From Eledone cirrhosa (lineage: Eukaryota), in contig OZ024741.1 in NCBI GenBank assembly GCA_964016885.1, positions 327,856,001-327,920,000 of the forward strand: a stretch of 64,000 nucleotides of DNA, given 5' to 3'. The first letter of the stretch is position 1. Each line of letters starts with the position of its first letter. Below, piece after piece: positions 1,411-57,393 of this stretch. The position numbers and the translations under genes are program-made. A model generated the notes under the pieces. The model ran no database searches. It was not told the DNA's origin and was given only the letters and a program-made list of their open reading frames with translations.

Positions 1411-1519
1411 TATAGTAATAATAATAAATTCGAAGAGAGTTCGATAAGGATAAATAAAATATATATCAAATATATAAGGACCCTAGAGCAAATATTTATT
1501 AAAAAAACAGATTAAAGTG

Positions 1520-2010
1520 TAAGCAAAGAATCGCTGCTTTCACCCTTAACGGGATCTTCTGAGACTAAAAAAATAAATCTGTGAACGCAGAAGTAAATAT
1601 TTAGAAAAACGTTGCAACCGAAGGAAAACAGTAAGACGATACTTTGGGTCGCGAAGACGTTACCTGGCAATGAACGGAAAAAGGCGAAGATGAAACGTCG
1701 TTATGTGGAGCGGTGAGAACAAATACACGGAAAGACAAAACCACGTTTAAGGTATAATGAAGTCGTAGACAACTTTATTTTGTTTCGTTTCTATGATATC
1801 TATTTTTTATATTTAAAATAGTTTAAACAAATGTTCATACATACATAAGCATGTATATCTCTTCTTTATGTAACTAAAAAATAAATCTGTGAATGCAGAA
1901 GTAAATATTTCGAAAAACGTTGCAAGCGAAGGAAAACAGGAAGACGATACTTTGGTTCGTGAAGACGTTCCCTGGCAATGAACGGAAAAAAGTGAAGATA
2001 TTACGTCGCA
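1520..2010 (-). repeat. PLE pLTR-like repeat (two direct copies of about 135 bp; inverted copy at 4330-4515)
   Basis: 1565-1700 matches 1873-2008; the reverse complement occurs at 4330-4515 next to a GIY-YIG fragment. Confidence 0.6.
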
Positions 2011-2175
2011 AACACTCTGATACAGACACGTATACATATACGCATTATATACAATTCTTCTGCTCTATTAGCAGAATCAGAATTCGGCAGCAAATATACC
2101 TTCCTGCACACATTTCCTCATACAACACATACAAAATATATATAAATCATAAACTGTTGTCATATTTACAAAAAG

Positions 2176-3285
2176 ATACGCGATGGGGCCCACCCACAGC
2201 CCCGGTGGACAGAATGGATGAGACGTTTCTCAGGAGGACGGCAAGGGAGACGCGCTGGAAAAGCCACTCCAACCTACGGCTGGCCAGCTCAGCGCCTATG
2301 GTGGTGAGTAACGAGGTAGCCCTGGGGCCGAGGACACCAGAAGTCTCCACTGCCAGGGGTACGACCGTAAACGTCTCGGAGAGCGACCGATATTTGAGGA
2401 GTTTGGGTTCTCAGCCCGACGTGCAGCAGAACGTGGGTCAGTGGCAGACTGCACCAAGTTGCGGCTGCAGAATGTGTCAGAGCAAGTGGCATCCCAGACG
2501 AGGGGTTTGCCGCCGCGGAACGGGAAGATGGTCATGCCATCTGGCCTTTTGCCGTCCCCGTGATCCAGCCCCACCGCCTCGAGCTGGGAAGGAGAGCCTC
2601 TAGCATCGAAGCCAATGCTTAATGACCTCGTTGATGGCAGCATGGCGTGGAATGCTGCCGGCACTGTGGAGACTGGAAAGCCGGTGGAGGCCAAATGAGT
2701 CCACGGTGGAACCGCAACGACATTGTTGTGGCTGGCAGATCCAGACGCCGAGCCTCAGGGAAACGCTGATGCGCAGGCTATGGTTGTCTAACTGCGTGCC
2801 AGTGGAGGAGGAGGGCAGCGCATAGAGCTAGGCACCACTGTGGAGTTTGGAGGCCGTACGAAACCAAGCAAGGCGGTGCTGGTCGAGCTGGCGAGTGAGC
2901 CTGTCTGAGTTCAGGCTGCACTGGATGGCATTCGAAGTGCGTTGGGGAGACTTGACGTCAGCAGGGGGAGAAGGAGGAGAGACGTCTACTGGGTTAATCC
3001 CAACCGGTCCTACGTCTCACAGGCGGCCTCATGTCCTCTGAACACAGAGGGTTCTGTTGTGTTTTGAAGAACCCTCCTGATGAGGACGCGGCACGAGGTT
3101 ACCGACGAAAGATACGCCGGAGAAGCTAGTGAGATCGGGGACCGGAGGCCAAGGCCGCCATAGCTGACAGGTAAAATGGCCTGCTTCCACTCTATGTCGT
3201 CAAACTTGACGTTGCATATCTCCTCGGCTGCTGCTCGGATACAAGTATCGAGGAGAGAGGTCTGGGTGTAGCACGGAGCGCTGCT
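2176..3285 (-). mobile_element. CRE-like non-LTR retrotransposon fragment (zinc knuckle + restriction-like endonuclease)
   Basis: Minus-strand peptides CRCGSTVDSFGLH...RHAAINEVI and GKRPDGMTIFPFRGGKPLVWDATCSDTF; GC-rich island; frameshifted. Confidence 0.75.
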
Positions 3286-3805
3286 AATATTCTATATAGG
3301 AAACCGAATGATTCTCGGCTTCAGAGTCAGGGATAATGTAAATAAATTAGTAGAACGACAATGACAGAGATTATTAAAATCGAATAATTGAATATATACA
3401 TACACGCATCTATATACGTACATACAGAGGCATACGCAAAACACACGCCATGCATGGATATACATGCACGTACACATACCTACAGGTAAAAACACATATG
3501 TTCACCAAAGCTACATCAACCGAAACTCAATGTCCACATATACACACCTTATGTACGGGCAAACACGCATACGCACACAAACACAAAATACACATATACA
3601 GATAACCATATACATATATACCAGTATATATAATATATTATATACATCTGTAACAAATACAAGCATATATAAGTGCGAGAAAGCATACGTACCTTCACAA
3701 ACCTTACGGGTAAGGTTTACTTATCTATGCAAATAAGAAATGGTATAAACATAAAATATACTTAGCTACCACATCAAGATGTAGATTATCCGCTTATTGT
3801 TCGTC

Positions 3806-4325
3806 CTATCCGTTAGGGCATAAAGTGGTGCTGTAATGCAGGAAAGTCTTATGCAATTTGTGTTTACAAGTCGAAATTGCCTCTGATTTTTTGTTTAAGA
3901 TGTGGTCATTGGCGTAGAGTATTTCAGGGCTTCAGCGGCGCAAAGATCACAAGGTCTATTATTTCCGTTATACGATCTAGTTCTAGCTAAGATGTGCCAG
4001 TGTAACCTATATTGGGTGTAGTTGTCTTTTAGACTCCAGATATAAGCTGAAAGTGACGTCATATTCCTTCTTAAAGGGTTAAGAAAAGAATGGGTGCGCA
4101 TGTAAAGACGCTGCTTTAATCTATTGGCGGTTAACCCTATGTAGGCCCAACGGGACGTGGGTGTTTCGACCTTACATTTGTAGACACTGTTACTGGAGAG
4201 GTATTTCCCGGATAGAAGGCAGTCAGCCCGATTCTTACAATTACAGTTGGTGCTAGCTACAGGGTTGCAGATGTTCCAAAGGCTAGGTAATTTAGTTAAA
4301 TTTGAAGCAGTCATGTTATGAGCAA
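3806..4325 (-). mobile_element. Naiad-type PLE GIY-YIG endonuclease fragment
   Basis: CNCKNRADCLLSGKYL...VYKC...YIGLT...R...H...CDLCAAE; after a frameshift continues CKHK to a stop at 3806. Confidence 0.8.
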
Positions 4326-4511
4326 GGTTCGCTTTTTTCTCTTCATTGCCAGGGAACGTCTTCACTAACCAAAGTATCGTCTTCCTCTTTTCCTTTTGTT
4401 GCAACGTTTTTCGAAATATTTACTTCTGCGTTCACAGATTGATATTTTCAGTCTCAGACGATCCCGTTAGGGGTGACAGCAGCGATTCTTTCCTTAAACT
4501 TTAATCTGTTA

Positions 4512-4558
<47 letters not shown>

Positions 4559-4613
4559 TGCCAACACTGGAATTGAACCATCAGCACATTTGAGGTATGT
4601 CATACATCAATTT

Positions 4614-4685
4614 ATATATTTTATCTGATGAGGACGTACTGAGGAAACAGCACACTACCTCCGAAATATATATAATAAAATATAT
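4614..4685 (+). ncRNA. Type I hammerhead ribozyme (PLE pLTR)
   Basis: ATATATTTTAT-CTGATGA-GGA...TCC-GAAA-TATATA-TA-ATAAAATATAT; 11-bp stem I. Confidence 0.8.
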
Positions 4686-4749
4686 TTGATTACATGAATG
4701 TCTATATTTATTAATATTTTGAATTAATATATATATATATATATATATG

Positions 4750-5520
4750 ACGCCCTCGCCCGTAGCGGATTTAAAGATAAGATAACTTACCTAGAAACCA
4801 CCGCAAGATGCAGAGGAGGAATAGACATAGGCAGATTAGCTGGTACAACCATCCCTTCAATAGAGAGGTATCTACTCCGATAGCTAGGATTTTCTTCACT
4901 TTGCTGAAATTACACTTCCCCATACAACATAGGTACCACACCATCTTTAATAAGAACACAATAAACTGTCTTACTCCACCACACCTAACCTAGCTAGGAA
5001 TATAGCCAACCACAATTCTAAAAAATTAAATAAGCCAACCACCTCCGAACCCAATCCCCGGACTGGGTCTCTATGTAATTGCCTAAATAAGGAAGCATGC
5101 CCACTTGAAAACAAATGCCTTACAAATGATATCGTATACAAATGCGATGTCATCTCAGGCACCGAGGATTGCAAAAAAACTTACATCGGCATGACCTCCA
5201 ACAACTTTAAGACCCGTTGGTATGCCCATACCCACTCCTTCAGAAGACCGGACAAATCAAATCAGACAACACTCGCCTACTACGTTTGGGACCTCAAAAG
5301 GAACTCCACCCCCTTCACGCTTAAATGGAAAATACTCCAGAAAGCGCGCTCTTACAACGGAGGACACAAGGGCTGCGACCTTTGTATTTCAGAGAGCTAC
5401 GAAATTTTATTCGCCAAGGGGCCGCTACTGAACAAACTCTCTGAACACTGCCCGAACTGCATGCACAAGAACTTTGCAACTTTCAAACAATTTAAGCCAG
5501 TGTTAAAGCCCGATGGCTAA
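4750..5520 (+). mobile_element. Naiad-type PLE 3' fragment (RT end, Zn linker, GIY-YIG)
   Basis: ISWYNHPF...IFNKNTI, CNCLNKEACPLENKC, IVYKC...YIGMTSNNFKTRWYAH, CDLCISE, CMHK; frameshifted; begins directly at (TA)n. Confidence 0.85.
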
Positions 5521-9520: not shown

Positions 9521-9689
9521 TAATAATTGTTTCTACTTTAGGCACAAGGCCAGCAAATTACCCAGTGCATTACTGGTACTTTATTTTATCGACCCCGTAA
9601 GGATAAAAGGCAAAGTCAACCTCGGCGGTATTTGAACTCAGATCGTAAAGGGACGTAACTATTCTGGAAAGCATGGCGTCCGACCCTCT
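9521..9689 (-). mobile_element. tRNA-derived SINE (family 1), 5'-truncated
   Basis: B-box GAGTTCAAAT and the GCCTTT…GGGGTCGATAAAATAAAGTACCAG domain on the minus strand; TSD TGTAAGTAATAAT. Confidence 0.85.
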
Positions 9690-10013
9690 TGTAAGTAATA
9701 ATAAAGTCCGTTTACAATTGTTTCACTACTCCATATAATGTTTCTGGATCAATTGATTATTAGATCGTTATTGATCAGGTTCAGAGGAAGATAAGTTCCA
9801 TGTGAATTTTGTGGTTTTGTTTTGCTTAACTAATGAATATTTCCATCTCTGTGCACCTAATCTCTGCATGAACCCAGTTCTCTAGCTGCCTCACACTGCA
9901 TATTGCACATTGAGCACATGCCTTTATGCTTTTGGCTTCTAACATCTTCACCAATCTCTCTTCTCTTCTCCTATCTCCATCTCTCTATTTAAGATTGGTT
10001 TACTCTTGAACTG

Positions 10014-10094
<81 letters not shown>

Positions 10095-10933
10095 GAGAGA
10101 GAGGGGGGGGGGGGGAGACGTGTAGTGAGCCACATTGATATATGTAGAACTTATATTGCTACATAAATATAAATAGCTAATTTTCTGCTGTGTTGCCTTG
10201 TTTCCTCAACCCACGGTAACATATATTTGATATGTGTAACTTTAGGGAGATGATTCTGCTACATTTCTTTATAGTAATATACAATTTCCGTGCAAACCTT
10301 TCTCATTAAAAATTATTTCTATAAGCTTTATAATCTTATCCGAATATGCCGAATAATCGAACAATTGTAATGAACCGTAAAAACAATTTTAAATTATTTC
10401 CCCATTACAATGTTTCCTGTGTTAACAGAATAGTATCGATGGCTGTGGTTTAGGGGTTAAGTTGTATGGCTCAAGATTGTAAGGACAAAAGTTTGATCCG
10501 TGGCGGAGTGCTCTTGAGCAAGAAAGATTTTTTTAACGTTGCTCCAGACCACACACCTGGTTTAATGTGTTGTATATGTACATCTTCGGGCTACTAGTTT
10601 CAACGTGTTGTATCTCACTGATAAGACCGTTAAGGGTGTATCTTTTTGAACAATGTACAGCCAATTTCTTGCTAATTTCACGGGCAGCATATTGCGCTAT
10701 TTTAACAACTGCAGTAACCATCGTTGGACCCAAAGATGTTTTGTAGTCAATGTTTCTATGTGAGGAATTAGTGATGGCACCAGCCATATGTTTTTGGGTG
10801 TTCGCCTCGCAACAATAGCAGGGAAATGCGATCGATTCTCGGAACAGGTCGTGTATCAACTGGAAAGAGAAAGTTTCAATGACTTTGGCACCAAACAGCA
10901 CTGGCCTTTTCCTTGGACATTATATATACAATA

Positions 10934-11113
10934 AGGGCACAGTATCGGTAGAGAGTTAGACAACCATGCTTCGCAGCATAGATTTATGGCCCTTTATGTA
11001 CTGAGTTAAAATCCTCCCGACGTTAACTTTGCCTTTCATCCTTACAGGCTCGATAAAATAAGGTACCAGTAATGAACTGGGTACTTGCTGGCCTTGTGCC
11101 AAACGTAGAAACA
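10934..11113 (+). mobile_element. tRNA-derived SINE (family 1)
   Basis: Same consensus; 15-bp TSD ATTATATATACAATA at 10919-10933 and 11114-11128. Confidence 0.85.
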
Positions 11114-11402
11114 ATTATATATACAATATATATATTATAGCATAGATTTCTTATCGAGAAGAACCCAGACCTCATGCAAATTTGAGTGGGGTGGAACTCG
11201 TCAAATTGGGTCCAAGGAAACAATGTTACCATTGTTCTTGACACTATTAATACTATCTAGAGATTGCATCTCTTGACAAGGGAGTATATACGCTTTGCGT
11301 ATTCTAATTTTGAATCCCGCATTTTCTGTCGGCAGCAGATATACACACACATACACACACATACACACACACATACACACACATACACACGCACACACAC
11401 AG

Positions 11403-11498
<96 letters not shown>

Positions 11499-11583
11499 AA
11501 GTTTATCCCGGGTTCAATCGGTGGTAACCGCAGTAAGTAAGGTACTCAAATCATAGCAGAGTATAGATATTTAATATAGAAAT

Positions 11584-11680
11584 GGCCTCTACAGGACTAG
11601 AATTGTTTCATTCGGGAGGAATCATCAGGGCTTCCTGATGATTTCTCCCGAATTGAACAGTTTGGAGTAATTCCATACAA
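11584..11680. ncRNA. Back-to-back HHR pair (minus copy has an intact core, plus copy is degenerate)
   Basis: TCATCAG (11622-11628) GGCTTC CTGATGA (11635-11641); minus copy reads CTGATGA-TTCCTCCCGAAT-GAAACA…TGTA. Confidence 0.6.
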
Positions 11681-17760: not shown

Positions 17761-17804
<44 letters not shown>

Positions 17805-18421
17805 TAGTAAAAAGGAAAAGAAAATGCCGACAAATTTTTCCTAGTGAAAAATAGTTTAATTAGGAATAAGTATAAATTAGTAATAAGTATTAGTTAGTAT
17901 ACAGTTTTAATTTTAAGTTTTTACCGGTTGCGCATTTCTAATGCTTTTCAAAAATAAGTTTGAGATAGAGCGCTCGTGATGTTTGCTCTAATCTGATCAG
18001 TTTTGGAAATCCTTCATGTTTTATGTGAAAAAGGTAGCTCCAGAGGTATTAAGATTTGGTTGCTGGCTGAATATCACGTGTATAAGCACTATAAATTTCG
18101 CGCCAATTCGTGTTGCTAAAATTCTTGTAGTCAAAACAATTTTGATTGGTCGGTAGAAGTCACGTGAATGTTAAAATAGATTTTAGCGTGAACTGATTTC
18201 GCGCCATATGTAGGTTTGTCGAAGAATGTCCTTTGCCGATTGATTGAGTTGCAGTCACTGACAAAATATGTCTATTAAGACAACTATATATATGTGTGTA
18301 TGTATGTGTGTGTGTAGTAAAGTGGATCATTATTGTGCTAATGGTCAGTAGGGATGTGTGTGTACGTGCGTGAATTGCAGCCATGTTGAAAGGTTAACAT
18401 TTCAGGTCTCTATTAAGACAA

Positions 18422-18457
<36 letters not shown>

Positions 18458-20128
18458 CAGAGTGTTTCTCTGTTGTGATGATGGGAATGAATCGGTCAGT
18501 AGGAATGTGTGTGTAAGTGTTTGTGTGTGTGGGGGGGGGGTTACTTTAACATGTTGAAACATATTCTTCCACACACAACACCCTCATCAATGAGGCCTTT
18601 GACACCATCATCCAGAACATCCCTGTGTTAAAAAGGACAAGAGAATGAACCAAATCCTTCGAACACACGATATCATGAAGAGCAAAAGACAATCTAATTC
18701 AATGAAAAACATTCTAACACATGCAAAAGTACTGCCAACCACAACAACGAAACCCACAGTAAAAAATGCGATAGACCCAACTGTGGCATATGTATCAACC
18801 CAATACAGGGTTCGGATTTCTATTTCAAACAAGGACAACATTTTATAGTAAAACACAATTTCACAGGCGCATCAGAAAACCAAATATATGTATTAATTGC
18901 TCAGGTTGTCGAGAACAATACATAGCCCAGACAACAACAGCCCCCGCCAATGCATTACTGTCCATAGATCCCAAATCAATATACGGGAATACAGAAAAAT
19001 ATCACTGAGTGAACACATTGATACCTGTGCCGCCCAAAACCATCCCAACTTTAGAATCTTTCCCCTCTACGAATTTAAAGATAATGCCAACCACTCCCAG
19101 CGCATCCACAAGGAATCTCACTTTATTAACAAATACGTCTAAACACTTCTCCCTTAGCCTAACCCACAACATACACACGTCAACATATATACCTACATCA
19201 GCATACATCCTACATACATTTCTATCCACAAATAAACACAACGACATGCGTAAACACACATGCCCTATGGTGCAACACAAAGATACACAAATTCGCACAC
19301 CTTTTGATGTTTATAGATATACACGTGCCGACACGCACACATACACACACGCACATATGTATTGCACATTGATGGGCACAAACATATTTGTACACAAGTA
19401 TCCCATATGGCAGGGCCTAATGGATTCCCCTTGCATTACGTACAATCTGTACACACACACACACCTTGGTGTTATGACAATACTATACATCATTTCACCT
19501 CTTTTATTATTGATGTTATTGATGCTCTTTTGAGAGAATCGTTTTTGCAAATGACTGAAAATATCGAATAATGTACGCCATTTTTACCAGTACCACACAA
19601 ATAATGGTCCATCCACACGCACACATACACACACACACACACACACATAAACACGCGTACACTAACATACAGAGAGACATACACACACACACACACACAC
19701 AACATATTTGTCTTAATAGACACCTGAACTGTTGACCTGTCAACAAGACTGCAAATCAATCAAGCGGAAAAGGACATTCTTCGACAAACCTACATTTGGC
19801 GCGAAACAAGTTCGCGCTAAAATCTATTTTAACATTCACGTGACTTCTACCGACCAATCAAAATTGTTTTGACTACAAGAATATTTGCAATACGAATTGG
19901 CGCGAAATTTATAGTGCTTATTCACGTGACATTCAACAACCAACCAAATCTTAATACCTCTGGAGCCACTCTTTTCACATGAAACATGAAGAATTGCCAA
20001 AACTGATCAGATTAGAGCAAAAATCACCAGCGCTCTATCTCTTATTACTAATTTGTACTTATTCCTAATTAAACTATTTTTCACTGGGAAACATTTGTCT
20101 GCATTTTCTTTTCCTTTTTACTAATATA
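17805..20128 (+). mobile_element. PLE GIY-YIG fragment (about 18560-19142) bracketed by inverted pLTR arms
   Basis: IYVLxCSGCREQYIAQT…HRSQINIREYRKISLSEHIDTC…KESHFINKY; 17805-18430 is the reverse complement of about 19700-20128. Confidence 0.85.
17915..17958 (-). ncRNA. Degenerate HHR, U3-A8 variant
   Basis: Reverse complement: TTGAAAA-GCATT(AGA)AATGC-GCAAC-CG-GTA; GAAA is mutated to GCAA. Confidence 0.45.
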
Positions 20129-20379
20129 TCACAACACGTGTGTCACACCTCTACTTTTTAAATATATATATATATATGTATGTAAATATATATTATATAC
20201 ACACACACACATTATATATATATATAAGAGATTCTGAGCTCGGACATCGGGCTATGACTTTCTAGTATATTTACACTCTATTATCCAATGTATGCAATAC
20301 TACGTTGAATAAGCATCGTACTTGATTAACATTGATATCATCCTGATCTATTTATCTGTCACTCTCTCTCTCTCTGTAT

Positions 20380-20702
<323 letters not shown>

Positions 20703-21434
20703 ACCGGTTACCGGTATGTATGACAAAAGGCTCAATGCAAATTATCAAGTGTTTAACAGAGCCGAGATACAAAGAGTTAAAATAATCAAATCTTAGTTTA
20801 ATACATTATATGCTGGCAATTGTTTCTTCCAGGGGGAAGTCTGGAATCATCTGAGCATAGGGAATGTCTAAACATGTGATTAAAATCCTAGTCATTTAGA
20901 ACATGTAGGAAGATACATAAGTGTTGTTAGTGTCATAGACATCATGTAGAGAATCACGAGTTAAAAAGATGTTATGCTTGAGAGAACACAATTACAAGGA
21001 GCACAGGTTGAAAGTGAAGAGGTACAAGCAAAAAGTACAGACAAAAAAAAGTTACAAGCAACGAAAAATGTAAGATAGGATAGATATAAGATATAAGATA
21101 TCATAGCACTGTAGATCAGGTAATGTTAGTGGTATACAATGCAGGAGTCAATACAATCAATAAGGCATGTCTGAGGAAATAGTTATATATATATATATGT
21201 ATGTGTGCATGTGTGTGTGTCAGTATGTGTGCACAAACTGACACACACACATACATATATATATATGTATATATAAACATATATATATATAAATACCAAA
21301 GATTAATATGGTTCATTGATTACTCAATGAATACAATTTTACAATAGATTAAAAGCGCTCAACAAAGAAATATTCCTTGCGTTTTAATATTATTCAAAAT
21401 ATTAACAAATGAAGAAAATTCACATACTCAAAAA

Positions 21435-21508
21435 ATATGCTTTATTATATATATTTCGAAGGTACTGTGTTGTTTTTTTCCAGTACGTCCTCGTCAGATA
21501 AAATATAT
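21435..21508 (-). ncRNA. Type I hammerhead ribozyme
   Basis: Reverse complement: TTTTAT-CTGACGA-GGACGTACTG…CAGTACCTTC-GAAA-TATATA-TA-ATAAAG. Confidence 0.8.
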
Positions 21509-21622
21509 GATTTGATTTATGACATACCTCTACGGTCTTGATATTTCAATTCCTGTATTGGCAGTACTGCAAATACTGGAATTGAAATATCAAGGCCGTA
21601 GAGTTATGTCATATATCAAATC

Positions 21623-21697
21623 ATATATTTTATCTGACGAGGACGTACTGGAAAGAAAACAACACAGTACATTCGAAATATATATAATAAAACATAT
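21623..21697 (+). ncRNA. Type I hammerhead ribozyme
   Basis: TTTTAT-CTGACGA-GGA C GTACTG…CAGTAC A TTC-GAAA-TATATA-TA-ATAAAA. Confidence 0.8.
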
Positions 21698-21734
21698 TTT
21701 AAGTATGTGAATATCTTTATTTGTTAATATTTTG

Positions 21735-21789
<55 letters not shown>

Positions 21790-22523
21790 TAGATAGATAG
21801 AGAGATATGAGTGTATGTATGTGTGCGCGCGCGCAGACACATGTATATATATATACTGTAGTACAAGTTTGGTAGAAATAGCCCAGGGGATGAGCACTCA
21901 GTCCAAAAGACTAGTTAAATGACATATAATGGTGGGTTATGCAACAGGCTGAATGAGTTAGTGTGTATAACCCTACGAAACCCACTTAATTACCTGTATA
22001 TGTCACATTTGTATCTAATCATATATATTATATATATATATATATACACACATATCCTACGATAACAGTTGTCAGATGATTTGAATATGAACAACCCTAA
22101 TTTATGAATATATTTAAATACCAATAGACGATAAACACTTTGGTAGGGCAAGATGCGTAAATTTACAAATTCTTGTGGAACTGCCCTTTAAATGTCACTG
22201 TTAAAATATTGAAAAATGACATTATTAAACTGATAAAAGGAATGAACTAAATTTTATTTTAACTCCTTGTGAACAGCATGATAAATTGTGTAGTATGTTA
22301 TGAATCATAATATGAATGATATGAATTTCCTGTTGGCTTTCTTGTTGTTTAGTCCTAGGTTAGGCTTACCATACTGAAGCAAGCTTATGTCCAAAAACAT
22401 TCATAAAGCTGGGTTTAAAAATCCCATAAGCAGGTGGCAGTAACTGACTGACTTTATAAGTTGTGGAAATTGCAGAGGAAGAGACCAATCGGCTGACAGA
22501 TATATATATATATATATATATAT

Positions 22524-22629
22524 ACATCAATCTATGTAAGACATAGAGTATACTAATGACTTTGGCATGTAAAACAAGCTGATACGAAGCAGATGTATGA
22601 AATTGACATGTAAAAGCTGTCATGGGATG

Positions 22630-22719
<90 letters not shown>

Positions 22720-22725
22720 CATCCC

Positions 22726-22792
<67 letters not shown>

Positions 22793-22897
22793 CATCCCAT
22801 GACAGCTTTTACATGTCAATTTCATACATCTGCTTCGTATCAGCTTGTTTTACATGCCAAAGTCATCAGTATACTCTATGTCTTACTTAGATTGATG
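22524..22897. repeat. Inverted about 110-bp arms around two (TA)n blocks
   Basis: 22524-22633 is the reverse complement of 22788-22897; an extra TAATACATCCCAT sits between the TA runs. Confidence 0.85.
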
Positions 22898-23023
22898 TTG
22901 TGATTATTTTAACTATTTACGGTCTAGCTAATTTATTGTTGGTATTGTTAGTATTGTTATTATTGTTCTGATTTAAAGTCACTACTATATATAGAAGCCA
23001 TGTGTATTCCCTTCATACTTGCA

Positions 23024-23131
23024 TGCTCTGATGAATTGACTGGTTATAACAAAGTATGGGTGATCCATTGACGCAATAACAGTCGGGTAGCGGTCTCTAG
23101 ACCTACCAGATCAGAGAAACAATTGTCAGCA
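23024..23131 (+). ncRNA. Type I HHR with an 81-nt branched stem II region
   Basis: TGCT-CTGATGA-[81 nt]-GAAAC-AATT-GTC-AGCA; internal pairings GACT..GTTAT/ATAAC..AGTC and GGTAG/CTACC. Confidence 0.6.
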
Positions 23132-23357
23132 ATGTGAATAAAGCCCTTATTGTATAGCAAACTATGTCACCCTTCTTTCTTGATTTATCGTTTCTCCAAG
23201 TGTAAACTACATAGAAATCACCGCGTACTCGCAGCATCACTATGGAAACATCTTGTTGAGTGAAACTTAGCCAAGCATTAATACTATCCACTACTCGGAG
23301 TACCCTACCTGGACTACATCTAAGTAGACTACCTGTAACAATATATTTTGTTTTCTC

Positions 23358-23411
<54 letters not shown>

Positions 23412-23490
23412 GAGGGGCTCATTCTACTGTCGTGGCTTTAAAAATTAGGGTTGTTTGCATAATTGCAGAAGAGTAGAGTATTATTATTTA

Positions 23491-23674
23491 TTGGCAGTAT
23501 CGGTAGAGAGTCGGACACCATGCTTTGAAGCATATAGTTACGTCGCGTGATGAACTGAGTTCAAATCCCGCCGAGGTTAACTTTGCCTTTCATCCTTAGG
23601 GGGTCGATAAAATAAAGTACCAGTAATACACTGGGATAATTGCTGGCCTTGTGCCTAAAATCGAAACAATTATT
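23491..23674 (+). mobile_element. tRNA-derived SINE (family 1)
   Basis: A-box TGGCAGTATCGG, B-box GAGTTCAAATCC, conserved central domain and tail. Confidence 0.85.
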
Positions 23675-23718
23675 AATATTAAAAAATCTCAGATTATACA
23701 GACAAACACACCCACACG

Positions 23719-23757
<39 letters not shown>

Positions 23758-24010
23758 TTATTTTGCTCTACGATTCTTATATATTTGATATATACTTTCC
23801 TTATCGAGCCCTCTATGGATTTTAGTCTTCAATTTTATTATTATTACTATATATATATACATATATATTTATATATGCAGAGGTTATATTTAATTTGTTG
23901 GGATTCAACAAGGTTAAACATTTTTATAACTTATATAAAGCACTCAACAGTTTAGTGGAGTAAATATACAATATATTAATAAATGGAAACTATATTTATG
24001 AAACCATAAT

Positions 24011-24071
24011 TATTTTATTATATATATTTCAATGGTAACCGAGATAAATTATGCCTTCATCAGATAAAATA
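24011..24071 (-). ncRNA. Type I hammerhead ribozyme
   Basis: Reverse complement: TATTTTAT-CTGATGA-AGGCAT…CCATT-GAAA-TATATA-TA-ATAAAATA; stem II is imperfect. Confidence 0.7.
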
Positions 24072-24192
24072 CAGATTTGTTTTATAAATAAATATTGATA
24101 TTCCCGAAAAAAAAGACAACATCAAGGGTTGGAATTCGCTGGGGGGTTGTCTTTTTCCGAGTATGTCAATATTTATTTACAAAACAAATCTG

Positions 24193-24258
24193 TATTTTAT
24201 CTGATGAAAGAGCACCATAATTTACCTTGGCTGCCCTTGAAATATATATAATAAAATA
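24193..24258 (+). ncRNA. Type I hammerhead ribozyme
   Basis: TATTTTAT-CTGATGA-AAGAGCA…TGCCCTT-GAAA-TATATA-TA-ATAAAATA. Confidence 0.8.
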
Positions 24259-24327
24259 ATTATGGTTTTATGAATATAATTTCCATTTATTAATATATTG
24301 TATATTATTATATATACTGTATATTAA

Positions 24328-24718
24328 GGCGGTGGATTGGCAGTATCGTTCGAGAGTCGGACGCCATGCTTTCCAGCATAGTTACGTCCCTTTACGATCT
24401 GAGTTCAAATCCCGCTGAGGTAGACTTTGCCTTTCATCCTTACGGGGTCGATAAAATAAAGTACCAGTAATGCACATATACAGGGGAGAGACAGAGACAG
24501 AGGCAGTGACATTGAAAATTTGATTCCATTATGTTCGGATTGGCAGTATCGGTAGAGGGTCGGACGCCATGCTTTGAAGCATAGAGTTACAGCCCTTGCC
24601 ATTCTGTGTTCAAATCCCGCCCAGATTAACTTTGCCTTTCATCCTTGCGCGGTCGATAAAATAAAGTGCCAATAATGCACTGGGATAATTGCTGCCCTTG
24701 TGCCAAAAGTAAAAACAA
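24328..24718 (+). mobile_element. Two adjacent family-1 SINEs (24328-24475 and 24537-24718)
   Basis: Each has A/B boxes and the GCCTTTCATCCTT…GTCGATAAAATAAAGT domain. Confidence 0.85.
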
Positions 24719-25017
24719 GTATGTTCAGACCTAATATATATATGTATATACTTATATGAAAAAAATATAAATATATATATATTATACAGTCGACATTGTT
24801 AAGAAAGCAATGCAAGGAAACCAAACTGTGTATAAATATATTTATATATATATAACGAAAGAAATGTGATAAGGAACCAAATAGACCATAACGCACCAAA
24901 GTACTCAATACTTAGTGTAGTAGAGTGGGTAATAGGAACAAGTATGACCCCGACGGCATATGTCAAGCAGTTTCGACAGCTAATTCTGGACTCTAATAAT
25001 GTCCAGAATTAGCCGTC

Positions 25018-29882: not shown

Positions 29883-29918
29883 TCCACCCCCACTCTCAAG
29901 CGTGAAACTAATAATAAT

Positions 29919-30104
29919 GGTTTCTACTTTTGGCACAAGGCCAGCAAATACCCAGTGCATTACTGGTACTTTACTTTATCGACCCCGTAAAGATGTAAGG
30001 CAAAGTTAAAATCGACAGGATTTGAACTCAGAATGGCGAGGGCCGTAACTCTATGCGTCAAAGCATGGCGTCCGACCGGCTACCGATACTGCCAATTCAC
30101 CACC
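29919..30104 (-). mobile_element. Family-1 SINE nested in a PLE pLTR
   Basis: TSD CGTGAAACTAAYAATAAT at 29901-29918 and 30105-30122. Confidence 0.85.
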
Positions 30105-32452: not shown

Positions 32453-33478
32453 ATATTATTCAATATGTTAATAAATGAAAAATATTCTCATAATCCAAAT
32501 ATATATTTTATTACAGATATTTCAAAGGCAAAATGGTGTTTAAATACGTTTTTATCAGACAAAATATCAGACTTTATGTAAGAGAAAAGAGGAATAAAAA
32601 CAAAAGAAGGGAAGATGTGAGGAGAATACAGAGAAAACGAAGGGGAATAAAGAAAAACGAAGAAAAGGAAAAAGAAAATATGAAATATAGGGGAGAATAA
32701 AAAACCGTTGTCTTCAAATAAGAAATCAAAAATGTATTCACATATATCAATGAATATCGCTTGTATTGGATTACGCTTTAGCTAATTATACTTTTATATT
32801 ATATCCAGATTATTAGGTATAGATTACTTTCTATATCAATCAAATATTTAAGTTAATTACAAGTTTTATAATTTAATTTAGCTCATTCTAGATTATTATA
32901 ATTTTTAATTTTAAGGTAGTATATGCTATTAGTATTATACTACAGCTCTAAAAGAATTAATCTTTAAAGCCTAATTAAATAATTATTAAATATGTATTAA
33001 AATATAATTGTTTCTACTTTAGGCACAAGGCCAGCAAAGTCACCAGTGCATTACTGGTACTTTATTTTATCGACCCCGTAAGGATGAAAGGCAAAGTCAA
33101 CCTCGGCGGGATTTGAACTCAGATCGTAAAGGGACGTAACTATGCTGGAAAGCATTGCGTCCGACTCTCTACCAATACATTAAAATATAATACCATGTAT
33201 ATATCCCTATCAATACATATAATCTATTTTGTTCATTTATTATCCAAATTTAGAGATTCACTTCATGAAAACTTTGTTATTATTTAATTTTCATTTATTT
33301 CATAGAATCCAACTGTGGTTATATTTACTCTCTATAATTTTATTTCATACCGTAGCGGTATGTCGCATATCAAATCTTATATTTTATATGATGAAAACGT
33401 ACTTTTGAAATAAGTATAATAAAATATATATTTTCATTATGAGAATATTTTTCATTCATTAACATGTTGAATAATATT
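32453..33478. repeat. Old inverted pair of pLTR ends with degenerate HHRs (32453-32575 and 33360-33478)
   Basis: Arms related to the 21392-21737 family; cores decayed to CTGATAA and ATGATGA. Confidence 0.55.
33009..33178 (-). mobile_element. Family-1 SINE
   Basis: Consensus match; TSD ATTAAAATATAAT. Confidence 0.85.
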
Positions 33479-33586
33479 AAATAACTCCAGGAAAATCACA
33501 TGTCGAGTGCTTCTAATCTATTGTAAAATTGTATTCGTTGAATAATCAACGAACCATATTAATCGTTGGTAATATATATATATATA

Positions 33587-34732
33587 TAATATAAAACGAA
33601 ATATCAGTGATGCATCTGGACTCAGTTTATTGTGTGCTACAATTGTTTCGCCGGTAAGTAGTTCGAGACAGGATCATTTTATGGATCTGTCTGATTCTAG
33701 ATCTGCGGGTTCTTCGGACATATGCAATACTTTCGGAACAAGATTTCTCATTGGGATATTAGCTTCAAAAAGCATCTTCCTCTCTTGTCTTGCTATTGGC
33801 TGTTGTTTTTCAACGTCATCATAAATCCTGGTCAATATTTGCTGCCAATCTGGCCATTAGCTACTCTCCGTCCGAAACATTTCAATGGACTCATGCTGGG
33901 TTTGGTATTTCACAAGTCCGCTCACACACACATATATACCCACACATACACACACACATATATACACATACACATACACACATACGCGCACACGTACATA
34001 TATACGCATACACATGTACACACACACATATGTACGAATATACACCCGCATACATATACATACACACTCTCTCTCACACACACCCACACGCGCCCACGAC
34101 CATATACATACCAACATACACGTTCACAGGCGCCTGCCTATATAGACTGGGTACATCCGCACTCACACGCACACACGCACGCACACACACACGTACACAC
34201 ATACAAGGACACATAGCTGCGTACGCGTACATTTTCTCATATATACAAACACGTACAGACATATACACAGACACACACACGCACGTATACACGCCTGTCC
34301 TTATAGAGAGGCACAAAGACAGACACGCTCCCAAAGACATATACACACATACACACATATACATACACACATATATATATATATTTCTACATATATGTAT
34401 ATGCACACACACAAAACATACTCACAAACAATCCCTACCATATGTAGGTGCACATACACACACATCCTCAGACAGCCACACACACACACAAACACTTGCG
34501 CGCGCGCACTGGCTCATATACCTTTCAACAAATACGCGCTCAATTACCTCCGTGTCCGCGTCAATCCACAAAGACACATACACGCACACATCTATATATC
34601 TCTGTCCGTACCACTATGTTATATACTCACAGTCATATACATCTGCACAATAGGTCATACAGGGTCGTCCATGGAAGGATGCATCCTGTTATACATGCAC
34701 AAATATAAACCATGTAACCATATACATACATC
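33587..34732 (-). mobile_element. Left arm of an about 1.1-kb inverted pair (pLTR-like, HHR-bearing)
   Basis: Reverse complement of about 36920-38053; paired ORF-track peptides (MDSCWxWYFTSPL, MCATIVSP) confirm the homology; HHR at 33633-33722. Confidence 0.85.
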
Positions 34733-34789
34733 CATATGTGCGGGGTACGGACAGAGATATATACATATATATATGTATTAAAATATAAT

Positions 34790-34959
34790 TGTTTCTACTT
34801 TTGGCACAAGGCCAGAAAATTCCCCAGTACACTACTGGTACTTTATTTTATCGAACCCATAAGGATGAAAGGCAAAGTGAACCTCTGCGGGATTTGAACT
34901 CAGACCGTAAAGGGACGTAACTATGCTGGAAAGCATGGCGTCCGACTCTCTACCGATAC
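34790..34959 (-). mobile_element. Family-1 SINE
   Basis: TSD TATGTATTAAAATATAAT at 34772-34789 and 34960-34977. Confidence 0.85.
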
Positions 34960-35197
34960 TATGTATTAAAATATAATACCATGTATATATCCCTATCAAT
35001 ATATATAATCTATTTTCTTCATTTGTGTGTGTATATGTATGTGTATATGTATGTGTGTGTATTTATGTGTATTTTTATATATATTTATGTATATGTTACG
35101 TGAATGCGTATGGATGTATTGTATATTTATTTTATTGTATATTTATTTTATTATATATCTATTCGACTGTATACTGTATTTTTATTTTATTGTTTTA

Positions 35198-36058
35198 CTA
35201 GCAGTAAAGCCCGGCGTTGCTCGGGGTCGCTCAGTAGCTGTGTTAAAGTTACAATGTTAAGTTTCTTTTTTGGCTTAAAAACTGTAGTGTCTACTGTGCA
35301 GACTTGCATGTGGTGTTTTTGATTAATATACCCTCAACCAACAATATGCCTTATGAAGTTAAGAAAACATAACGATAACCCGAATGTTATAACAAAAGAG
35401 GATGCTGGGGATAAAAACTGCACTGGTTATTTATTAACAAAGATCGAAAATGTAAACACTGCAGCGCAGAGAAAAACATTAGCGTAACCAAATTATCAGT
35501 TATGTCTGTCTGCACGCCTATATCACCTCTCTGCACGACTGTCTGTCTGCACGCCTATATCACCTCTCTGCACGACTGTCTGTCTGCACGCGTATATCAC
35601 CTCTCTGCACGACTGTCTGTCTGCACGCCTAACGACGAAATATTTGCTTGTTTTACGTAGTCTTTAAATAGACTTGTTTTCAAGTAAAAATATTGTTTTA
35701 AAATGCTTTTAAATGGAAATGAAGCAAAACGGAAGCTTAGTGTTCGAACTGATGAATTTTGCAGGTCAATATTTTGCTGGCTCGACAACTGTTAAAGCCA
35801 GCGTAATTTTTTACGTAAGACGCTCAATGTAAACAGAACAAAGGGAAATAACTGATAACTTACGCTCAAAAATCGATACATTATATTCGATTTCGTCACA
35901 TAGGGTGGGTCAATTTGAAATTTTTTTTTTCCGATGTCTTCGCTAGGGCTCAATGTACAAGTATAGCAATTTCGGTGCAATTCCGTGAGAGATTCTAAAA
36001 GGAGATGTGTGCCAAAAATCGATAGACAGACAGACAACCACAGTTTTATATATATAGA
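35198..36058 (-). mobile_element. Non-autonomous Helitron
   Basis: Minus strand starts TC(TATATATATAAAA…TGTCTGTCTGTC) and ends with hairpin CCCGAGCAACGCCGGG plus CTAG; inserted between A and T with no TSD; internal 37-bp tandem repeat. Confidence 0.8.
35503..35631. repeat. 37-bp tandem repeat, about 3.5 copies
   Basis: Unit TGTCTGTCTGCACGCCTATATCACCTCTCTGCACGAC. Confidence 0.95.
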
Positions 36059-36159
36059 TTGTATATTTATTTTATTGTTTTTATATGGGTGTATATGTGT
36101 AAGCGTAAGTGTGTATGTATATATACATACATATATATATATATATATATTAAAAAAAA

Positions 36160-36378
36160 AAGGATCGATCGACTTTCGTCAAAACGGACCGAGGAAACAA
36201 TGTTTCCGTCGGTCTTTCCAGTTGCTAGTACTATCTATCGGTCGCAACTCCAGGTAGAAGGAAGAACGTGAAATAAAGTGTCTTGCCCAAGGACATAACG
36301 CATCGGCCGGTCCACGAATCGAACTCACAACCTCATGATTGTGAATCCAATTCTCTAACCACTCAGCCACACGCCTTC
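36160..36378 (-). mobile_element. tRNA-derived CORE-like SINE (family 2)
   Basis: Reverse complement: TGGCTGAGTGGTTAG (A box), GAGTTCGATTC (B box), GTCCTTGGGCAAGACACTT (CORE-like); degenerate relatives near 10440-10555, 41180-41295, 42020-42250 and 45655-45760. Confidence 0.75.
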
Positions 36379-36380
36379 AC

Positions 36381-36412
<32 letters not shown>

Positions 36413-36465
36413 CTGTATGTGTGCGTGTGTATATATATATGTGTATGTATAAGTGTATATATATT

Positions 36466-36496
<31 letters not shown>

Positions 36497-36814
36497 ATAT
36501 ATGTATATATGCACATGTATATGTTACGTGAATGTGTATGGATGCATGTATATGATTATAATGTTTATATCCGTGCATGGGTAATACAAGATACATCCTT
36601 TACATTAGATACATATCTTGTGTAGGTGTGTAGATGTGTAGGTATGTGTGTGTATGTACGTTTATTTGTAGGTGTGTTTGTGTGGGTGTGTAGAGATGTG
36701 TATATATATGTATGTATATATATATATATATGTGTGTGTGTATATATGTATGTATATGTATGTGTGTATGTGTGTGTGAGTATATGTGTAAATAGGTATG
36801 TGTATATGTGTATA

Positions 36815-36859
<45 letters not shown>

Positions 36860-36919
36860 TTATTTATGTTTCTACTTATTTATTTATTTATATGTGTGTA
36901 TGTATGCTTGCATGTATGT

Positions 36920-38053
36920 GTATGGATGTATGTCTATGGTTACATGGTTTATATTTGTGCATGTATAACAGGATGCATCCTTCCATGGACGACCCTGTGT
37001 GACTTTTGTGCAGATGTATATGACTGTGAGTATATAACATAGTGGTACGGACAGAGATATATAGATGTGTGCGTGTATGTGTGTTTGTGGATGTGCGTGG
37101 ACACGGAGGTAATTGAGCGCGTATTTGTTGTAATGTATTTGAGCCAGTGCGGGCGTGTGTGTGGGGGGGGGGTATGTGTGAGTGTATGTGCACCTACATA
37201 TGGTAGGGATTGCTTGTGAGTATATTTTGTGCGTGTGCATATACATATATGTATATATATATATATATATATGTGTATGTATATATGTATATGTGTGTAT
37301 ATGTCTTTGGGAGCGTGTCTGTCTGTGTGCCTCTCTATAAGGACAGGCGTGTATATGTGCATGGGTGTGTGTCTATGTATATGTCTGTACGTGTTTGTGT
37401 ATATGAGCAAATGTACACGTACGCAGGTATGTGCCCTTGTATGCGTGTACATCTGTGTGTGTGTGCGTGCGTGTGAGAGCGGATGTACGAGGGTATATAG
37501 GCAGGCGTCTGTGGACGTGTATGTTGGTATGTATATGGTCGTGGGCGTGTGTGGGTGCGTGTAAAAGAGAGAGTGTGTATGTATATGTATGCGGGTGTAT
37601 ATTGGTACATATGTGTGTGTACATGTGTATGCGTATATATGTACGTGTACGCGTGTGTATGTGTGTGAGTATGTGTATATATGTGTGTGTGTATGTGTGG
37701 GTATATATGTGTGTGCGAGCGGACTTGTGAAATACCAAGCCCAGCATGAGTCCATTGAAGTGTGTCGGACGGAGAGTAGATGATGGCCAGTTTGGCAGCA
37801 AATATTGACTAGAATTTATGATGACGTAGAAAAACAACAGCCAATAGCAAGACAAGAGAGGAAGATATTTTTAGAAGCTAATACCCTAGTGACAAAATTT
37901 GTTCCGAAAGTATTGCATGTGTCCGAAGAACCTGCGGATCTAGAATCAGACAGATCCATACAATGATCCTGTCTCGAGCTGTCTGCCGGCGAAACAATTG
38001 TAGCACACAATAATCTAAGTCCAGATGCATCACTGATTTTTCGTTTTATATTA
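36920..38053 (+). mobile_element. Right arm of the 1.1-kb inverted pair
   Basis: See 33587-34732; a third family member lies at about 53800-54200. Confidence 0.85.
37918..38007 (+). ncRNA. Type I HHR variant (CCGANGA core, 61-nt stem II region)
   Basis: TGTGT-CCGAAGA-ACCTGCGG…CTGCCGGC-GAAAC-AATT-GTA-GCACA; copies at 33633-33722 (-) and 54065-54154 (+). Confidence 0.6.
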
Positions 38054-38260
38054 TATCACACTCTGCTCTGTAAGAACATAGCGTGCTCAACTGGCATACC
38101 GCCTATGGAAGCGTCATTGCTACCATTAAACACACACACATATATATACGTATAGATATATATACGTATAGATATATATATATGTATGTATATATGTATG
38201 TATGTATATATGGATGTATATAAATATATGTATATATGTATGTATATATGTATTTATATT

Positions 38261-46684: not shown

Positions 46685-46729
<45 letters not shown>

Positions 46730-46769
46730 GATATTAAATAAATGGAAACTATATTTATAAAACCATATT

Positions 46770-46835
46770 TATTTCATTATATATATTTCAGGGATATCAT
46801 ATTAACAATATGTTATGCCTTCTTCAGACAAAATA
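46770..46835 (-). ncRNA. Type I HHR in the inverted 5' pLTR
   Basis: Mirror image of 50740-50805. Confidence 0.8.
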
Positions 46836-47224
46836 CAATATAGACAGTTTTATAGATAAATAGATTTGACATACCGTTCAACATCGACTTGTATTTGAAA
46901 AAGTTGATTTGGCAGTGAAAAATTGTAAACAGAAAGAAAGAAAGAAAGAAAGAAGGAAAGAAAGAAAGAAAACGAAGAAAAAGAAGAAAAAGAAGAAATG
47001 CATGCAACAAAATAGAGAGATGGAAAGATAGATAAAGAGAAGAACTTCATGTAAAGAAACAGAGAGAGATATATAGAGAGAGGAAATAGATAGAGATAGA
47101 TATATATAGAGAAAAGTAGGTAGTTGAACGACGTATCAATGATACATTTATTTATTTATTTATTTATTTAGCTCTAGTATTAATGTAAGGGAGATATATG
47201 TGGTTAGGAAAGAAAACTGAAAAA

Positions 47225-49436: not shown

Positions 49437-49886
49437 TATATTTAGTTTGATTTGTAATTATTTGGGAAACTAACCGATAAATCTTTCGATTTCTTCTTTT
49501 TATTCTTCTTTTTATTTTAAACATTCTTCATGAAAAATTAAACTACCCTAAAAGTTGATGCTCCAAATATATCGAATAAACGTTACACTAGATAAACTTC
49601 TATATTAAATATAAGAACATATGTAGACCAAATAGGCATCCTAAACTTTTGAAATGATTTCTGCTAGACGCGATTTGGTAAAAAATGTTTAGCTTTATCT
49701 GTTTTCGACTCTGATGCTTATAATGAACTTGGCAATATATTGTCAATTAATTTTGAAGGGTTGATCTTTGTGGTCGATTTGCGTGGCATATTATGTTTTT
49801 ATTTTTTATTATTTTAATATTTTCATTTTTAATATGTAATATTTTTTATTTTTTATTTTTCTATTTTATTTATTTGTTTATTATTA

Positions 49887-49926
<40 letters not shown>

Positions 49927-50739
49927 CTGTTTTTGTTTCTGATATTTTTATTAATATATTGAAATCTGTTCTCTATTTCTGCTTGATAGATAATCATGTA
50001 GAGTAAAGACAAGAATAGTATTGTTAAAATTAATATAGACTCTATATATATATGTGTATATATACACATATATGTATGCTTAAATTTTTATAGCACAATG
50101 AGAATGTTCTCCGTGTGAAATAGGGGTTTGCAGAGCTGATCACGTAAATTCACATCGATGTTTGTAGTTATCATATAAACATATGAATTTTTAAAACTAG
50201 ACATAAGATCATTACTTTTCACACATTATAGATACGTGTCTCATTCAGGAATACTGATATTTACATTATAGTGCCTGGTTTTTATACGAACTAATATTTC
50301 TATATTCTGCCTCGCCTATGTCTGGTTACTTTTCATTTTTCTCTCTATATAACGGCTGGTTTCTTTCCTAACCACATATATCTCCCTTACATTAATACTA
50401 GAGCTAAATAAATAAATAAATAAATAAATGTATCATTGATACGTCGTTCAACTACCTACTTTTCTCTATATATATCTATCTCTATCTATTTCCTCTCTCT
50501 ATATATCTCTCTCTGTTTCTTTACATGAAGTTCTTCTCTTTATCTATCTTTCCATCTCTCTATTTTGTTGCATGCATTTCTTCTTTTTCTTCTTTTTCTT
50601 CGTTTTCTTTCTTTCTTTCCTTCTTTCTTTCTTTCTTTCTTTCTGTTTACAATTTTTCACTGCCAAATCAACTTTTTCAAATACAAGTCGATGTTGAACG
50701 GTATGTCAAATCTATTTATCTATAAAACTGTCTATATTG

Positions 50740-50805
50740 TATTTTGTCTGAAGAAGGCATAACATATTGTTAATATGATATCCCTGAAATATATATAATG
50801 AAATA
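50740..50805 (+). ncRNA. Type I HHR in the 3' pLTR
   Basis: TATTTTGT-CTGAAGA-AGG…CATATT(GTT)AATATG…CCT-GAAA-TATATA-TA-ATGAAATA. Confidence 0.8.
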
Positions 50806-50932
50806 AATATGGTTTTATAAATATAGTTTCCATTTATTTAATATCGTAAATATACTCCAAATACTTGTTGAGTGCTTTTATATCAGTTATAAATATTTAC
50901 TAGTTGTAACCCAACAATTTAAATATAACTTT

Positions 50933-50992
<60 letters not shown>

Positions 50993-57269: not shown

Positions 57270-57393
57270 CGACCCCACACCACCACAAGACACCCCTTCA
57301 CCCAACACCTCCGACCCCATGGAAGTCGTGCGACCCGAACACCGGGAAGCAGATAGGTAGGTCTCTACACTCTCCTTTGGGTTTGCCGCCCAC

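Follow-up and report, generated by a model that had tools for sequence, protein, structure and literature searches.

Penelope-like elements (PLEs) offer the closest described systems for two small palindromic elements, hereafter element 1 and element 2, that we analyzed in a 64,000-nucleotide stretch of Eledone cirrhosa DNA (contig OZ024741.1, forward-strand positions 327,856,001 to 327,920,000; the whole stretch is called the window and numbered from its first letter). The PLEs of the Hydra clade, as described in PMC8557442, resemble the elements studied here in their (TA)n target, in the hammerhead ribozyme of their pseudo-long terminal repeat (pLTR), in an inverted 5'-truncated copy and in a one-sided tail, but their tails measure 30-40 bp, compared to approximately 65-96 bp here, and the accessible text of that source contains no description of fixed-length palindromes without an open reading frame (ORF), of an initiator (Inr) as 5' limit or of a duplicated hairpin. 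The same source names the origin of PLE tandem and inverted structures as an open question, and the accessible part of its supplement includes one octopus family, Hydra-1_Obim, with hammerhead sequences unlike those of the window families. Penelope of A. vaga, as reported in PMC3846280, also presents head-to-head pLTRs, palindromes at their junctions, a TATA box with Inr TCACT and an optional tail on one pLTR; unlike the elements studied here, its palindromes are few, mostly flank ORFs and were ascribed to antisense self-priming. In the Poseidon element PAc of Anolis, reverse transcriptase (RT) starts in vitro at two internal sites bounding the tail and both strands of an AT-rich target are cut and extended, with hammerhead cleavage dispensable for insertion in vitro (PMC11167929). 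These features are matched here, but the PAc start sites lie within the ORF at an AC-rich stem loop, whereas here they precede the ORF and each has a repeated hairpin on its 3' side, and the main text of that report does not tie the two sites to inverted copies. Finally, animal non-LTR retrozymes are likewise small, non-coding, of PLE pLTR origin and endowed with type I hammerheads (bioRxiv 10.64898/2026.07.22.740005), but the available text describes them as head-to-tail tandems with at least two hammerheads on one strand, whereas the arms here are head to head with one hammerhead per strand. Inverted pLTRs, tails, pLTR hammerheads, short PLE insertions (PMC9977147) and pLTR-derived retrozymes are hence already known; PLE run-off at the start site, a duplicated hairpin and PLE twin priming were not found in the literature searched, which excluded subscription papers.

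Both fold-backs reported by a sequence-only reading of the window are real, at positions 21387-21742 (element 1; arms 91.7% alike) and 23963-24306 (element 2; arms 83.1% alike), and none of 100 shuffled sequences folded equally well (z-scores of -34.7 and -26.1, respectively). As that reading had also stated, neither contains an ORF, the listed frames of at least 100 aa within 21392-24306 lying only between the elements and crossing (TA)n, and a hammerhead motif is present on both strands of both elements, with CTGA at 21634 (+) and 21497 (-) in element 1 and at 24201 (+) and 24063 (-) in element 2. Each motif comprises CTGA[C/T]GA, helix II, GAAA, a minimal palindromic helix III (GAAA-TATATAT-A) and a 6-bp helix I; an Rfam scan of 21280-24320 up to E 10 returned no hammerhead family and only microsatellite-driven miRNA-type matches below threshold, so that the ribozyme call is based on the motif and the anatomy of its helices. 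Both palindromes are embedded in (TA)n, the arms of element 1 meet bluntly at 21565/21566, and a one-sided tail of 87-92 bp, overlooked by the earlier reading, lies on the left of each. We consider it probable, at roughly 0.7, that each palindrome represents a short PLE insertion consisting of two copies of the 5' region placed head to head by twin priming on one sense RNA, and we hold their by-product status with considerably greater confidence.

To relate these elements to other copies, we searched the 3.0 Gb host assembly. Exact motif matches numbered 7,211 for the element 1 group (22-mer), 107 for the subfamily of element 1 itself and 2,076 for element 2 (32-mer), with no matches for reversed-motif controls. 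DNA searches, in which the best 40 of 1,783 (element 1) and the best 40 of 3,265 (element 2) candidates were scored, provided top-match sets biased to full palindromes, with 34 of 40 loci used for element 1 (36 fetched) and 27 for element 2; two loci (L009 and L011) were dropped as segmental duplicates of L008, with flanks 96.6-98.2% alike. For the motif-sampled sets, matches to a motif inside one arm were taken in list order (70 of 107 and 70 of 2,076), with only one arm admitted per insertion; after removal of 4 and 2 duplicates, 66 (element 1) and 68 (element 2) loci remained. A third family, with 1,896 matches and 25 loci examined, follows the same plan: its 5' limit is fixed, its tail is one-sided and hairpin 1 is present.

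Long copies share a common layout, consisting of C^ACT (+1), GTATGT (+39/+44), the hammerhead, site 1 (+179/+188), a hairpin, the tail, site 2 (+276/+282), a second copy of the hairpin and the ATG of the ORF encoding RT and endonuclease (EN). The arms of the palindromes begin at +1 and extend to site 1 or to site 2, and these fixed ends give rise to many copies of one size. In long copies, the 5' limit of the arm is the A of TCACT or CCACT, which is preceded in the element 1 family by a TATA box (TATATAAA) at -32 (-32/-30); in the third family, a TATA box occurs at the same spacing in 3 of the 25 loci, all three being long copies. Under a stricter scoring, adopted after a looser count had overrun into AT-rich flanks, 58 of 97 short arms end within +1 to +8 (31/48 in element 1, p 5e-17; 27/49 in element 2, p 2e-8, against an even spread), with 15 and 13, respectively, ending exactly at +1. 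This limit matches PLE promoter anatomy in A. vaga, where pLTRs carry a TATA box and Inr TCACT (PMC3846280), and in D. virilis Penelope, where the intron donor lies 46 bp past the start site (PMC2377424). We therefore infer that +1 is a putative transcription start, with less assurance in the element 2 family. Loci running on upstream of +1 amounted to 18/66 (element 1) and 19/68 (element 2) in the motif-sampled sets, and (TA)n flanks both insertion ends in 26/34 and 24/27 cases of the top-match sets.

The two 3' limits are each followed, a few bases downstream and outside the copied part, by the motif RCTCC-loop-TTGAGYGC, predicted to form a hairpin. Hairpin 2 was first seen in an element 2 locus (L177); its presence in the element 1 family was then predicted and borne out at 4 places, the first version of the tail-ORF junction pattern having returned 0 matches and a looser version 4. 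The closing pair of the hairpin is A-T in 115/115 site 1 matches (four families) and G-C in 14/14 site 2 matches (two families). Tails of element 2 run past site 2 into hairpin 2 in only 23 of 2,624 cases, a lower bound because exact matching was used. In addition, a more distant PLE family presents CTCC..TGTTGAGC directly before the ORF start (L040, minus strand, approximately 590 bp past the hammerhead), which suggests that the hairpin may be common to a wider set of PLEs. Reads from three runs of unrecorded kind on one sample, possibly that of the assembly itself, show increased depth between +1 and site 2 and, at both sites, loose TA ends; depth does not measure copy number here, and these data were not used as support.

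An inverted partner accompanies 54 of the 97 short arms, and the distribution of tails among these 54 pairs departs from independent choice: 46 pairs have one tail, seven have none and one has two, compared to expectations of 26.7, 16.7 and 10.7. The excess of one-tailed pairs is significant (p 1e-7) and persists when tail-only partners are set aside (37/45, p 6e-6). In nine pairs an arm is joined to an inverted tail-only piece, which is the non-overlapping geometry of twin priming, and many tail-less arms begin at +1 to +3 while the tail-bearing arm is cut at +75 to +237. Among solo short arms, 29 of 43 are tail-less.

The twin-priming reading would involve one unspliced sense PLE transcript starting at +1, on which the two hairpins would position two RT-EN molecules. 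Each RT would start 3-5 nt 5' of its hairpin, at site 1 or site 2, primed by nicks made one per opposite target strand in the (TA)n tract, and both complementary DNAs (cDNAs) would run off the 5' end of the RNA at +1, after which their ends would be joined either bluntly or through microhomology or small inserts. The hammerheads would be passengers in this process, and its products, lacking hairpin 2 and sequence upstream of +1, would probably be mostly dead ends. In L1 twin priming, a second primer from the opposite target strand yields an inversion joined by microhomology, with a variable second site and non-overlapping parts; in contrast, both sites are fixed here and the two cDNAs usually overlap in the 5' region. 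On balance, we lean slightly towards a more general proposal, namely that the inverted pLTR and one-sided tail of PLEs reflect programmed twin priming in which two molecules of RT-EN, a protein predicted to dimerize in Poseidon (PMC11167929), are docked on one sense transcript by a duplicated RNA hairpin. Under this proposal, docking on the upstream pLTR would give fixed-length "strong-stop" palindromes recording the transcription start genome-wide, and docking on the downstream pLTR of a tandem would yield long inverted structures such as that at 46721-50936. The copies described here would then provide a large natural product sample for how PLEs form inverted ends, and the hairpin a concrete cis-signal whose two copies are separately removable in an existing type of in vitro assay.

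Several observations weigh against twin priming on a transcript starting at +1. The element 2 family lacks a TATA box and has AATAAA directly before +1, which could there be a processing site, and the predicted splice acceptor is doubtful, with 10 of 23 sequences reading TTTTG instead of TTTAG. The hairpin stem is only 4 bp long and was recovered in some, not all, of 10 single-sequence folds; the tally of its closing pair is drawn only from matches already having CTC..GAG and from few independent families. The excess of pairs in which the tail arm is the more truncated (31 vs 9) falls to 8 vs 3 (p 0.23) without tail-only partners. The partner of an arm is its unique nearest neighbor for only 4/54 arms in element 2 and 25/68 in element 1, and arm-specific changes in the 12 core bases of the hammerhead are depleted in the element 2 top-match set (3 vs 9.7 expected, p 0.013). 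Two further points weaken the case against copying as a unit: a single length class (51 nt) holds 12 of the 29 readable element 1 centres, and in that family pairs of equal centre length are slightly closer to each other (0.060 vs 0.067). This 51-nt class is the register with most self-pairing of cDNA ends (9 nt, with 6 Watson-Crick and 2 GT pairs), and its junction sequence fits twin priming and fold-back alike, since the pairing could form between two cDNAs or within a hairpin with a 3-nt loop.

Among the alternatives, fold-back survives best, even if we regard it as unlikely: one cDNA from site 2 would reach +1 and copy itself as far as site 1, and later central deletions would vary the junction. 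Self-priming has already been proposed for head-to-head PLE junctions (PMC3846280), the centre of one locus (L121) resembles a fold-back, and the process accounts for the 51-nt class as well as for variants common to both arms. The latter, which also speak for twin priming on one RNA, are frequent: in a test on 45 (element 1) and 42 (element 2) palindromes, 56/86 (0.65) and 85/113 (0.75) minor alleles are common to both arms of a copy, compared to 0.08 (maximum 0.21) and 0.33 (maximum 0.51) in shuffled data, and arms differ by 0.033 within copies in both families versus 0.067 (element 1) and 0.044 (element 2) across copies. However, the pairs with a tail-less arm starting near +1 and an internally cut tail arm are such that neither arm contains the other, and the predominance of tail-less solo arms suggests that site 1 acts as a separate start site. 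Furthermore, blunt +1/+1 joints, such as that of element 1, which recurs exactly at nine places, leave no loop, and fold-back leaves it unexplained that hairpin 1 is a copy of hairpin 2.

Less likely still is a SINE-like (short interspersed nuclear element) non-autonomous PLE, in which the unit from +1 to site 2 would be transcribed from an internal promoter, remobilised and re-formed into inverted pairs. An internal promoter is described for Penelope (PMC2377424), and the TATA-less element 2 family, the retention of hairpin 1 by tail arms and the large excess of short arms over ORF-linked copies would all agree with such a unit. Yet short copies lack hairpin 2 while 46 of the 54 pairs carry a site 2 tail, and their sequence types are also encountered among long and ORF-linked copies. 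Remobilisation of this kind could still explain some of the tail-less copies (7/54 pairs and 29/43 solo arms).

The sequence-only reading had left the choice between extreme truncation or inversion products of PLE integration and a propagating, viroid-like rod RNA that is self-cleaving in both polarities and possibly under constraint. Our results agree with integration products bearing an inversion; the fixed arm ends speak against random extreme truncations. The viroid-like rod appears very improbable. In its favor, same-size copies are many and dispersed (38 of the 40 scored places cover the whole element 1 query on at least one strand, and 40 places were scored for element 2), junction classes recur, and core changes are depleted in the one set mentioned above. 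Propagation as a unit, in the manner of a miniature inverted-repeat transposable element (MITE) or other self-copying palindrome, implies one internal sequence and descent of the whole unit. Instead, when junctions were typed by centre strings (typing by BLAST ends was dropped as biased by the reference copy), the central junctions resolved into 10 length classes for element 1 (49-68 nt; 29/36 readable) and 11 for element 2 (41-63 nt; 26/27 readable), and no lineages of tail-bearing and tail-less, or left and right, arms were apparent, with tail-tail, tail-less and mixed pairs differing by 0.066/0.067/0.067 in element 1 and 0.044/0.045/0.045 in element 2. Even copies sharing the blunt junction are 13.5% different across and 5.1% within copies, as computed from four full copies (L003 and two others of the nine places, plus the window copy). 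The palindromes are thus not copied as a self-propagating unit.

The hammerheads themselves do not fit the rod either. The supposed retention of stems fails in the window, where helix II is shortened by a 5-nt deletion in the left arm of element 2, which also shows 14 departures from the family majority, and the right arm of element 1 has an uncompensated C>A in helix II along with a dead splice donor. The depletion of core changes in the element 2 top-match set was not replicated in the element 1 top-match set (10 vs 14.0 expected) or the element 2 motif-sampled set (9 vs 7.2 expected), and constraint on the hammerhead after insertion is therefore not consistent. Furthermore, a single hammerhead per strand cannot excise a unit-length RNA, and each lies 3' of its own near-perfect complement and is hence transcribed after it; forcing the hammerhead costs 86 and 61 kcal/mol relative to the rod, which is favored by 60-86 kcal/mol. 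Metazoan hammerheads with minimal helix III are also described as requiring dimers and cutting poorly (PMC4209133). Rods with a ribozyme on both strands in animal genomes can be by-products of retrotransposition and would then be likely false positives for viroid-like or MITE searches; if read through by host transcripts, they would form long double-stranded RNA. Lastly, self-priming from antisense templates (Arkhipova et al. 2013), proposed for head-to-head palindromes and intron retention (PMC3846280), is the least credible alternative, given that sense-3' ends join the (TA)n target (at both ends in the counts above), +1 ends meet centrally and, on the sense strand, each end is followed 3' by the repeated signal.

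To identify the parents of the palindrome arms, we examined a near-intact PLE in the window, whose pLTR (46721-46874/50701-50859) the earlier reading had correctly likened to element 2 (75-79%) while naming the parent Naiad. Its ORF has YRDD at aa 352 of the first frame and IIY..YVG in the second, together with RWQA at 37 (RWR in L177 and L190), DKT rather than DKG at 118, a CxCX5C linker (CNCRDRSKC), CxxC (CDLCAEE) and CxH (CKH); CCHH is absent, with just one Cys between IIY and YVG. Pfam searches on pieces of this ORF matched neither an RT nor a GIY-YIG domain, and a related frame at 4954 gave GIY-YIG below the cut-off. RT followed by a C-terminal GIY-YIG, RWx, DKT, CxCX5C, CxxC and CxH around E and N, a pLTR hammerhead and a (TA)n target characterize the Hydra clade as defined in the accessible text of PMC8557442, to which, judging by these motifs, the parents of the palindrome arms belong. 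Naiad was rejected, as it needs an N-terminal GIY-YIG, DKA and no canonical hammerhead, and Neptune was rejected on the motif check. Outside the window, the tail is joined to an ORF starting MEFF at four loci (L177, L174, L190 and L192); L190 and L177 show the junction of pLTR, tail and ORF, and their ORFs are 48% and 74% identical, respectively, to the RT part of 47225-49436. In the near-intact element, the inverted 3' copy (46721-47215) is 100% identical to 50360-50854 across two 495-bp arms, which marks it as young, and the pLTR hammerhead and the tail lie at 50748 and approximately 50849-50936. The inverted copy joins the element at 47216-47225, 9 bases before the ATG, within the leader region downstream of hairpin 2.

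Table 1. Features of the two palindromes and of related PLE copies in the window.
Feature	Position	Strand	Remarks
Element 1 one-sided tail, between sites 1 and 2	21295-21386	-	94% to family unit of L190; ends at 21295 beside (TA)n
Hairpin 1 opening element 1 tail			ACTC...TTGAGTGC type, diverged in window copy
Element 1 tail-bearing arm	21387-21565	-	Spans +1 (21565, the A of C^ACT) to site 1; GTATGT at 21527-21522 is the predicted splice donor
Type I hammerhead motif, minimal palindromic helix III	21440-21503	-	Predicted cut after 21446
Element 1 tail-less arm	21566-21742	+	+1 (21566) to site 1; donor mutated to TTATGT
Type I hammerhead motif	21628-21692	+	Predicted cut after 21686; single helix II pair disrupted
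Element 2 one-sided tail, including hairpin 1	23876-23962	-	
Element 2 tail-bearing arm	23963-24142	-	From approximately +6 to site 1
Element 2 hammerhead, 5-nt deletion in helix II	24013-24069	-	Predicted cut after 24019
Element 2 tail-less arm	24145-24306	+	From approximately +27 to site 1
Element 2 hammerhead	24195-24256	+	Predicted cut after 24250
Solo tail-less arm, element 1 group	4557-4730	+	Begins exactly at +1 after (TA)n
Third-family head-to-head pair, shorter arms	11498-11660 (ends approximate)	.	Tail on left
Longer head-to-head pair, related family	32453-33572	.	Tail on right; SINE-like insert between arms
Related Hydra-clade PLE	46721-50936	+	ORF 47225-49436 in two frames, RT then GIY-YIG

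Of the further head-to-head pairs proposed by the earlier reading, those at 11584-11680 and 32453-33478 were borne out, the former belonging to the third family and following the same plan, with a + arm that lacks GAAA. The third, at 33587-38053, is instead a long inverted repeat of another element (33584-38056; arms 33584-34736 and 36921-38056, 90% alike, abutting TA repeats), in which a core scan found no CTGANGA followed by GAAA and inspection by eye no clear ORF in the stretch that separates the arms. Two divergent Hydra-type GIY-YIG fragments lie in opposite orientation around the solo arm (3925-4329, minus strand, and 4853-5487, plus strand), with 33-51% identity to the EN part. Elsewhere in the assembly, one locus (L186, G000:C1:63697639-63697899) contains one inverted and three direct hammerhead copies in a head-to-tail array with 65 bp spacing, which could be a nascent retrozyme.

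The window also contains more inverted-repeat pairs, 1.3-3 kb apart and 84-95% alike, at 17799-20129, 9523-11118 and 1492-4524, as well as near-perfect palindromes (95-97%) with (TA)n-rich parts at 22524-22898 and 20379-20702, the first of which is centred on (TA)n and includes CTGATGA in its arms, with no hammerhead helices. A remnant of a long interspersed nuclear element with APE endonuclease and RT domains occupies 56037-59656. Finally, a dispersed SINE-like repeat, which may resemble the tRNA-derived SINEs of cephalopods, occurs at 23495-23665, 24328-24475, 24539-24722, 29914-30104 and 33020-33175.

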